In this document: in pieces, positions 40,944 to 41,639 of the stretch
Layout of the letters: the number at the start of each line of letters is the position of its first letter
Position numbering within the stretch: the stretch's first letter is position 1
From: Staphylococcus phage vB_SurM-PSU4
Length of the DNA: 64,000 nt
Direction: 5' to 3' (one strand)
Sequence record: OL436245.1
Made by a program: the position numbers and the translations under genes
The notes under the pieces: generated by a model
Database searches by the model: none
What the model saw: the letters and a program-made list of their open reading frames with translations, nothing else
What the model was told of the DNA's origin: nothing

Positions 40944-41639
40944 TTGGCAGACTTATATAATTCTATGACTGACCTTATGAGCAAAACAACAGAAGGAACA
41001 GATTGGGATATAGAAACAATTGATGCACCTAGTGATATTATATCTATGGCTGTACATGGTGGCGGTATTGAGATAGGTAGTACTGAATTAGCGAGAGTGA
41101 TAGCCGAAAAAGGTGGATATAATTATTTCTCTTTCGTAGCTAAATTATCTAGTAACAATACACAACTACATGTAACGAGTACAAGGTACGATGCACCTAG
41201 AATTATATCTAAGATACAAGATTCAAAGCATTCTATATCTGTACATGGAGCAGCAGGAGATGGAAGTTACACATATATGGGCGGTGGAAATACTGCCCTT
41301 AAAAACCTGATTTGGAAAAATTTAGCAGAAAAAGGTTTTGACTGTAGAGAATCACCAGGTAATCTAGCAGGCGTAGAACCAATGAATATTGCTAATAGAA
41401 CAACTTTAGGTATGGGTGTACAATTAGAACTTTCTACCCAACAACGAAAAGATTTCTTTTTAGATGGAGATTGGTCAAGGTCGAGTAGAGAAAATAAGAA
41501 CAATTGGACTCAGAAGTTATATGATTATGCAGATGCAGTAGTTGAAGCTGTAGAAGAATATCAAAAAAGAGAAATAGTTGAAAAAGAAAACTCAATTTAC
41601 TACCCATTCTTAGAAAGTCTAAAATTTAAGAAATACTGA
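40944..41639 (+). CDS. PghP-like poly-gamma-glutamate hydrolase family protein (zinc-dependent gamma-glutamyl hydrolase fold)
   Basis: MAVHGGGIEIGSTELARVIAEKGGYNYFSFVAKL...LHVTSTRYDAP...SVHGAAGDG...NIANRTTLGMGVQLELS matches the HGGxIExGTxE signature of the phage PghP family. Confidence 0.6.
   Translation: MADLYNSMTDLMSKTTEGTDWDIETIDAPSDIISMAVHGGGIEIGSTELARVIAEKGGYNYFSFVAKLSSNNTQLHVTSTRYDAPRIISKIQDSKHSISVHGAAGDGSYTYMGGGNTALKNLIWKNLAEKGFDCRESPGNLAGVEPMNIANRTTLGMGVQLELSTQQRKDFFLDGDWSRSSRENKNNWTQKLYDYADAVVEAVEEYQKREIVEKENSIYYPFLESLKFKKY

Follow-up and report, generated by a model that had tools for sequence, protein, structure and literature searches.

Staphylococcus phage vB_SurM-PSU4 (sequence record OL436245.1) carries, in the stretch of 64,000 nucleotides that was analysed as a whole and is referred to here as the window, a 231-amino-acid open reading frame (ORF) belonging to the PghP family of poly-gamma-glutamate (PGA) hydrolases. 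The ORF lies inside the tail and baseplate structural module, between the genes for the central spike and the tail tube initiator (Table 1), in keeping with the baseplate location proposed in a first-pass annotation of the sequence, whose boundaries for the ORF were exact. Its TTG start codon directly follows the TAG stop codon of the 1056-amino-acid spike ORF, and the Shine-Dalgarno (SD) motif AGGAGGG that serves it stands 8 nt upstream. This start is credible because the resulting protein begins with MADLY, in line with the MADKY at the N-termini of homologs and of PDB entry 21dc. Small antisense ORFs (52-78 amino acids) that overlap the gene are mechanical only.

The phage is a Baoshanvirus (Herelleviridae, Twortvirinae): over the 20 kb that surround the gene, its identity to other members of the genus is 92-94%, the relatives matched being RSM-J51Sa, vB_SsapH-Golestan101-M (Golestan101-M below), phiSA_BS1/BS2 and JDF86. 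The order hub, weld, spike and tube initiator agrees with gp110-113 of phage 812, except that the PghP gene stands between the last two; the weld ortholog in the metagenomic contig L012 matches PF26537 Phi812_weld_lid. Since a terminator hairpin and a promoter-like site come next, the PghP gene is the last one of the spike operon, which comprises the tape-measure, hub, weld and spike genes with the PghP gene at the end, and in the Sepunavirus SEP1 a promoter is annotated at the equivalent place. The SEP1 ortholog, gp033, is expressed (RNA-seq supplementary tables, PMC11265418), and its 12 listed values follow those of the spike gene gp032 with a log-scale Pearson r of 0.96, as against 0.83 for the tube-initiator gene, so that co-transcription with the spike is seen for this ortholog. 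As a separate observation, within 41823-41839 the GTG taken mechanically as the start of the tube-initiator ORF (41828) overlaps its own ribosome-binding motif GAGAGGTG, and an in-frame, better spaced GTG at 41837 may be the true start.

Table 1. Features at and around the PghP-family gene (positions in the window; aa, amino acids)
Feature	Position	Strand	Basis or remark
Baseplate hub gene with C-terminal CHAP 'cleaver' domain	34419..36857	+	PF05257 at aa 696-785; description of 812 gp110
Weld protein gene	36870..37772	+	position of 812 gp111; weak NlpC/P60 match
Central spike gene, 1056 aa	37773..40943	+	aa 1-403 match 812 spike 9euf_B/9eul_A, E=2e-115
RBP-type beta-propeller of spike, ~aa 434-858	39072..40346	+	stands where 812 has knob and GDPD petal
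Cassette differing from Golestan101-M: spike C-terminal domain and PghP	40383..41706	+	blastn breakpoints, annotations, Pfam PF00082
Spike C-terminal domain, aa 883-1056 (~170 aa)	40419..40940	+	blastp; tblastn linkage to PghP
Shine-Dalgarno motif AGGAGGG	40930..40936	+	within last codons of spike gene; serves TTG start
PghP-family poly-gamma-glutamate hydrolase gene	40944..41639	+	231 aa; PF05908, 3a9l, AlphaFold model, Foldseek
Catalytic domain aa 1-210 and disordered tail aa 211-231 of the 231-aa protein			
Zinc-site motif HGGGIEIGSTE	41055..41087	+	aa 38-48; alignment to PghP and PghL
Intrinsic terminator hairpin	41718..41745	+	12-bp stem, then T-run; scan, 1 found against 0.4 expected
Promoter-like site of next operon, extended -10 (TG-n-TATAAT)	41792..41819	+	scan
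Tail tube initiator gene	41828..42637	+	PF23980, E=9e-87; 9euf_M, E=3e-53

By sequence and by fold the 231-amino-acid ORF is a full-length zinc gamma-glutamyl hydrolase of the PghP family, with a similarity far above chance. The profile PF05908 (Gamma_PGA_hydro; MEROPS M86) is matched with E=2e-54 and 184.5 bits against a cut-off of 22, residues 5-197 covering positions 1-190 of 191, and the profile search returned no other family; further matches are PHROG 4175 (E=5e-45), PghP of phage phiNIT1 (PDB 3a9l, E=1.3e-37), another PGA hydrolase of phage origin (21dc, E=2e-33) and YndL/PghL (E=2e-24). An AlphaFold model built on an alignment of 41 homologs (pLDDT 92, pTM 0.87), disordered only in the last ~20 residues, takes up the open alpha/beta sandwich of PghP, a fold related to zinc carboxypeptidases, and Foldseek places it in the PDB next to 3a9l (TM 0.96, rmsd 1.4 A), 21dc (TM 0.94) and the PGA-bound PghL 5onj (TM 0.93), the next-best fold after the PghP family scoring only 0.46. 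Both searches named at first pass as able to overturn the assignment by pointing to a different fold, by profile and by structure, have therefore come out in its favour.

The roles of individual residues were transferred through a MAFFT alignment with PghP and PghL from published work, according to which zinc is bound by H40, E45 and H103 in PghP and by H41, E46 and H102 in PghL, mutation of either of the catalytic residues E165 and H78 of PghP kills activity, the carboxylates of a hexa-gamma-glutamate are held in PghL by the side chains of N73, S74, H77, T79, S80, N151, T168 and R171, and an R171S mutant of PghL does not cleave PGA (PMC6506827). The signature HGGGIE(I/P)G(S/T)xE that had first drawn attention to the ORF is present as HGGGIEIGSTE, and the downstream His and Glu positions expected of the family align as H76, H101 and E162: H38, E43 and H101 correspond to the zinc ligands and are invariant in the 41 homologs, E162 and H76 to the catalytic E165 and H78 of PghP, and N72, T73, T78, S79, N148, T165 and R168 to the PGA subsites. 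All 12 of these zinc, catalytic and subsite positions are thus kept, the sole change being that Ser74 of PghL is a threonine here (T73); the same 12 residues are found in all staphylococcal-phage homologs examined, and most are invariant over the 41 diverse homologs. In the mechanism that we propose, zinc would be bound by H38, E43 and H101, E162 would serve as catalytic acid/base, and H76, T78, S79, N72, T73, N148, T165 and R168 would grip the alpha-carboxylates of successive gamma-linked glutamates. Gamma-DL-PGA is cleaved by all assayed members of the family (PMC4497714, PMC6506827), and the 231-amino-acid protein is likewise predicted to be a zinc-dependent endo-hydrolase of gamma-DL-PGA that would act on the PGA of staphylococci.

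Two further properties of the protein and its gene deserve mention. The GC content of the catalytic core (40900-41499), 0.355-0.365, is the highest within the surrounding 5 kb, whose flanks range from 0.23 to 0.33, which fits either strong residue constraints or a foreign origin. The tail (41574-41636) holds a short conserved motif, Y-P-[FL]-[LV]-x-[SND]-L, that reads YYPFLESLK here, recurs in RSM-J51Sa and in the homologs P0002-P0006, opens the linker of the PghP-GDPD fusions 184DA_133 and Alsa4_14 described below, and is absent from PghP of phiNIT1; it might be a docking peptide.

What does such an enzyme have to do with the spike? The homology of the spike to PDB entries of the 812 spike ends at residue 403, and no Pfam family was matched by the 1056-amino-acid protein, GDPD (PF03009) included, so that no GDPD domain was found at its C-terminus. 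Its middle ~420 residues are shared with tail fibers of the BppU family encoded by prophages in M. sciuri, S. haemolyticus and S. saprophyticus and give a confident, beta-rich model whose best folds are phi11 Gp45 (5efv), the 80alpha receptor-binding protein (RBP) and the P68 fiber, with five-bladed propellers of the GH43 and sialidase types coming next; receptor binding may thus have shifted onto the central spike in this lineage. The C-terminal domain gives a weak ConA/LamG-like signal (Laminin_G_3, E=0.0023, under the Pfam threshold). All the spikes that it matches in blastp have PghP behind them (184DA_134, 41%; Alsa4_15, 29%; SEP1_32 and BE24_89, 22%), and sister phages without PghP do not have the domain. 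A tblastn search of all 50,697 phage records found the domain in 34, and all 34 are also PghP-positive, none having the domain alone. In the records compared, the PghP match starts 4-13 nt 3' of the domain, as in RSM-J51Sa, where 65792-66346 is followed by 66350-67030. The chief ground for a physical cooperation of PghP with the spike tip is this linkage in 34 of 34 records, taken together with the covalent fusions described next; from the sequences compared we infer such a pairing.

Three architectures of PghP occur at this same locus. In the first (a), a standalone gene follows the spike, as in the window, RSM-J51Sa, metagenomic L012 and the Sepunaviruses SEP1, BE24 and phiIPLA-C1C. In the second (b), found in 184DA (184DA_133) and Alsa_4 (Alsa4_14), a PghP-linker-GDPD protein of 619-627 amino acids is encoded 3' of a shortened spike, and the annotation pattern suggests that the large EW/PG-2021 group belongs here as well. 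In the third (c), seen in S2G3 (S2G3_150) and Golestan-100, PghP forms the C-terminus, residues 928-1110, of a 1132-amino-acid spike. The fusion linker of S2G3, KGGGS, is encoded by AAAGGAGG / AAAGGAGGCGGGTCG (L009 5985-6000; window counterpart 40929-40946) and retains AAGGAGG, the SD of the split form, so that fused and split genes may interconvert easily; the linker looks like an SD relic, the footprint of a gene fusion or fission.

Could the gene in the window then be nothing but a broken fusion, a remnant left where a nonsense mutation cut it in two, or a gene that relies on stop-codon readthrough, with little or no expression of its own? This we regard as very improbable indeed, and it was rejected as an explanation. 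True fusions do exist, as just described, and the PghP ORF is in frame with the spike ORF, a single TAG lying between them, but a direct stop-start abutment puts the two ORFs in frame automatically. The junction, with its SD inside the end of the spike gene, is moreover kept with different codons in three lineages (TAG/TTG in the window, TAG/GTG in RSM-J51Sa and TAA/TTG in L012, whose spike and PghP are 76% and 70% identical to those of the window), the SD being strong and ideally spaced; the catalytic domain is complete with all invariant residues intact, and in SEP1 the ortholog forms a gene of its own, lies in another frame and is transcribed. The conservation of the junction with differing codons argues for translational coupling of PghP to the spike gene rather than for a nonsense-broken fusion or programmed readthrough.

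The function that we propose for this arrangement is slightly on the probable side in our judgement: an active PGA endo-hydrolase that is made with the spike, carried at its tip and used to clear PGA for the propeller and then for CHAP. Stop-start translational coupling would yield PghP together with the spike; PghP would ride the virion at the distal spike end, docked non-covalently to the spike C-terminal domain, and would cut the non-covalently held poly-gamma-DL-glutamate layer of coagulase-negative staphylococci, and clearance of that layer would let first the receptor-binding propeller and then the CHAP domain of the hub reach the wall. A parallel is offered by phage 812, whose GDPD petal is proposed to act on teichoic acid in this way. 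Both the attachment to the virion and the benefit for infection are inferred from gene sequences; the covalent fusions of PghP to the spike or to a GDPD domain speak, by comparison, for the first-pass idea of a virion-associated depolymerase.

Several points weigh against this proposal. PghP in the window is a separate cistron; the model of the spike C-terminal domain is unreliable (pLDDT 25-68), so that no docking surface can be read from it; S. aureus ATCC 25923 was the isolation host of sister Baoshanviruses, and we know of no report of PGA synthesis in S. aureus. In the literature searched, neither virion proteomics of a PghP-carrying staphylococcal phage, Sepunaviruses included, nor an assay of any staphylococcal-phage PghP was found; the mass-spectrometry data for JS1 (mBio 2026) concern a phage with a single GDPD spike and without PghP. 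Finally, PghP of phiNIT1 is reported to be soluble and released at lysis rather than a virion protein (PMC6966330). The chief rival to our proposal takes up this last point: with the same chemistry, the enzyme would be soluble, made late, released by lysis and used to rid nearby cells or biofilm of their PGA, which would allow progeny to adsorb. Apart from the prototype, it draws on the separate ORF with its own SD and start, on the lack of a proteomic sign of incorporation in the literature searched and on the protein itself, in which neither a signal peptide nor a recognisable structural domain was found, only the 20-residue disordered tail. Against a soluble enzyme stand the facts that relatives fuse the domain covalently to the spike or to a GDPD spike domain, that the gene is strictly co-inherited with the spike C-terminal domain, that the abutting stop-start junction is conserved and that in siphoviruses, too, the gene stands directly 3' of a BppU-type fiber gene; we consider it rather unlikely, if still the alternative to be taken most seriously.

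If PghP is held at the spike tip, is it the only enzyme to be found there? Homology to the sister phages breaks off at 40382 (against Golestan101-M) or 40197 (against BS1) in blastn and resumes at ~41700. At this slot Golestan101-M and phiSA_BS1 have another spike end, an S8 subtilase (PF00082, 364-367 amino acids) and a conserved 156-amino-acid ORF with no Pfam match, RSM-J51Sa has PghP, S8 subtilase and the 156-amino-acid ORF, and the window has PghP only (slots compared: window, as in Table 1; L004 10399-12025; L005 10073-12130; L006 11652-13217). The slot 3' of the central spike is thus a hotspot of enzyme-gene exchange inside one genus, the baseplate-linked subtilase being noteworthy in its own right. 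In addition, the metagenomic contigs L012, L013 and L014 (Logan SRR9276201, SRR9276316 and SRR9276232), from three sequencing samples, all end no more than ~10 nt past a 70%-identical PghP, which fits assembly breaks at a strain-variable slot. It is conceivable, if somewhat less than an even prospect in our eyes, that the spike tip of staphylococcal Twortvirinae is in general an exchangeable enzyme holder whose C-terminal domain recruits a separately translated PghP, so that the virion would carry a polypeptide-capsule depolymerase ahead of the receptor-binding propeller, with GDPD, S8 subtilase or fused PghP taking that place in sister phages. If this is true, the PGA depolymerase of the phage would be tethered to the virion, which has not been reported for the soluble prototype from a Bacillus phage, and would help to determine which PGA-producing coagulase-negative staphylococci the phage can infect.

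The distribution of the family bears on both host and substrate. By tblastn the PghP domain is present in 225 phage records (149 from Bacillus, 74 from Staphylococcus, 1 from Listeria and 1 labelled only 'Phage'), with 73 staphylococcal records at E<1e-40; the nearest database relatives of the 231-amino-acid protein are 93% identical (P0001, RSM-J51Sa), and the following ones ~70%. The hosts of PghP-bearing phages are mainly S. xylosus, S. carnosus, S. epidermidis, S. capitis, S. hominis, S. equorum, S. succinus, S. ureilyticus, S. saprophyticus and Mammaliicoccus. S. aureus is the host label of 3 of the 73 PghP records, compared with at least 92 of 279 for the tail module generally, a contrast for which the Fisher test is crude and indicative only, the records being non-independent and the sets not strictly nested. 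In a bacterial survey with one genome per species, the best 80 of 549 relatives, to which all following locus counts refer, include ~25 Staphylococcus loci, spread over ~20 species other than S. aureus, and no S. aureus locus. The suggestion made at first pass that the host range might include PGA-making coagulase-negative staphylococci fits these data, since the phages come overwhelmingly from such hosts and the chromosomal homologs from some 20 non-aureus species. The idea that the staphylococcal chromosomal homologs are StB20-like prophage genes was dropped, as it holds for only 1 of the 25 loci; the homolog of S. hominis NCTC 11320 (L019 5995-6624, 209 amino acids), for instance, is non-prophage and lies between korAB (2-oxoacid:ferredoxin oxidoreductase) and miaB/mutS. 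An S. auricularis prophage has a PghP-family gene directly 3' of a BppU-type fiber gene, and the PghP-family proteins of Priestia (P0008, P0010-P0017; 352-353 amino acids) have an extra C-terminal region of ~150 residues.

That the family is tied to PGA is indicated by capB/capC or capA/capD genes, which adjoin the PghP homolog within 6 kb in 11 of the 80 loci, in diverse Firmicutes (S. agnetis L037, 10058-12552; L046, L048, L072, L075, L080, L082, L088, L092, L093 and L094); these loci suggest a widespread, mostly unannotated pairing of genes for PGA synthesis and turnover outside Bacillus. A protein-database search with pXO2 CapB was uninformative on Staphylococcus, the 120 matches listed being all from Bacillus or Priestia, with Priestia dominating the PgsB/CapB matches. 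Kocianova and colleagues are said to have found PGA, in 2005, in S. epidermidis and closely related coagulase-negative species, and cap genes have been reported for S. epidermidis, S. capitis, S. chromogenes, S. shinii and primate-skin isolates. The PGA of S. epidermidis is a DL polymer that is not covalently anchored (PMC6506827). A paper on virulence of bovine non-aureus staphylococci was set aside because it concerns cap5/8 polysaccharide genes rather than PGA.

Is PGA nonetheless the wrong substrate, and does the enzyme attack another gamma-glutamyl bond, such as the D-isoglutamine-L-lysine bond of the peptidoglycan stem, and so join the hub CHAP and the NlpC/P60-like domain of the weld as a third hydrolase of the wall? 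The position of PghP among wall-degrading baseplate proteins would suit such a role, as would the Amidase_3-type peptidoglycan amidases among its remoter fold neighbours (TM 0.4-0.58), the few homolog-bearing phages with S. aureus as host and the S. hominis chromosomal copies, which lie among housekeeping genes, no cap gene being closer than 6 kb. A stem-peptide substrate is disfavoured, however, because the multi-subsite carboxylate network is fully conserved, every PGA-carboxylate side chain of the PghL-hexaglutamate complex being kept down to the arginine altered in R171S; the cleavage of PGA by all assayed family members and the cap-linked loci speak against it too, and the stem peptide of staphylococci carries amidated iso-glutamine, which lacks that carboxylate. 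All this makes a peptidoglycan substrate improbable, and PGA remains the one that we favour.

The gene type as such is not new. A paper of 2015 already named Staphylococcus phages with PghP-like genes, giving three phage matches (PMC4497714), and the label 'poly-gamma-glutamate hydrolase' is given in RefSeq to SEP1 gp033 and to proteins of phiIPLA-C1C, StB12 and StB20, those of the latter two also being labelled DUF867. The first-pass annotation had missed three things: the existing annotation of relatives, the identity of the upstream ORF as the central spike, and the published description of the prototype PghP as soluble and not carried on the virion. What is added is the apparent linkage of PghP to the central spike, and no description of this linkage, of the three architectures or of a cassette of C-terminal domain and PghP was found in the literature searched, the coverage of which was incomplete. 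The comparison also exposes systematic mis-annotation of both proteins: spikes are labelled 'glycerophosphoryl diester phosphodiesterase' without a Pfam GDPD match (L003 3827-5980, L011 3836-5980, L005 7651-10557 and L009 3229-6627), and PghP homologs appear as 'replication protein' (BE04-06, 80A and phiIPLA-C1C in GenBank), a legacy of the name YjqB. In S. epidermidis and related pathogens of skin and devices, PGA gives protection against antimicrobial peptides and phagocytosis. An enzyme able to remove it is of interest for anti-biofilm or adjunct use, for which the standalone 231-amino-acid protein, the spike C-terminal domain as its putative docking partner and the natural fusions are candidate constructs. 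The presence or absence of the cassette may furthermore help to predict which Twortvirinae can infect PGA-coated staphylococci, and could be useful in choosing or engineering therapeutic phages.

How, finally, does the system compare with those already known? PghP of phiNIT1 (3a9l; MEROPS M86.001) shares the full-length PF05908 domain, ~37% identity, the zinc ligands, the catalytic Glu and His and the Thr/Ser pair, and its gene (L007 2989-3615), too, is 3' of a tail-type gene, starting 15 nt past a 587-amino-acid right-handed beta-helix protein annotated as tail spike (1210-2973). Unlike the window gene, which follows the spike and is apparently coupled to it in translation, it lies outside the baseplate module, and its product lacks the 20-residue C-terminal tail. 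PghL (YndL; 5onj) and PghZ (YoqZ) from B. subtilis prophages have the same zinc ligands and PGA-contact side chains, S74 being the threonine mentioned above, but are only ~29% identical and are encoded by bacterial prophage-remnant genes with no link to a baseplate. The GDPD petal of phages 812 and K (9eul) has an analogous proposed role, as an enzyme at the distal spike tip that clears a polymer before the hub CHAP acts, on a spike whose 403 N-terminal residues are homologous to those of the window spike; the petal differs in its unrelated fold and in its chemistry, a phosphodiesterase on teichoic acid as opposed to a metallopeptidase on PGA, and it is part of the spike chain and seen by cryo-EM, whereas the attachment of PghP is suggested here by genes.

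The enzyme itself occurs in other staphylococcal phages. The Sepunavirus hydrolases (SEP1 gp033, phiIPLA-C1C and BE24_0090) are standalone proteins of ~222 amino acids in the same slot between spike and tube initiator, downstream of a spike that ends in a distant homolog of the window spike C-terminal domain; they differ in being 44-47% identical and in having a 20-nt spacer and another frame instead of the stop-start abutment, and their spike lacks the RBP-type propeller segment. The ORFs of the siphoviruses StB12 and StB20 (PF05908/DUF867), phages of S. hominis and S. capitis, are 43-49% identical and directly 3' of a BppU-type fiber gene, but that fiber belongs to the tail tip of a temperate siphovirus and not to the central spike of a myovirus. 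The fused forms, S2G3_150 and its Golestan-100 counterpart on the one hand and 184DA_133 and Alsa4_14 on the other, have the same domain, residues and locus; in them PghP is covalently part of the spike or joined to a GDPD of the teichoic-acid phosphodiesterase type, whereas in the window it is a separate polypeptide with no GDPD.

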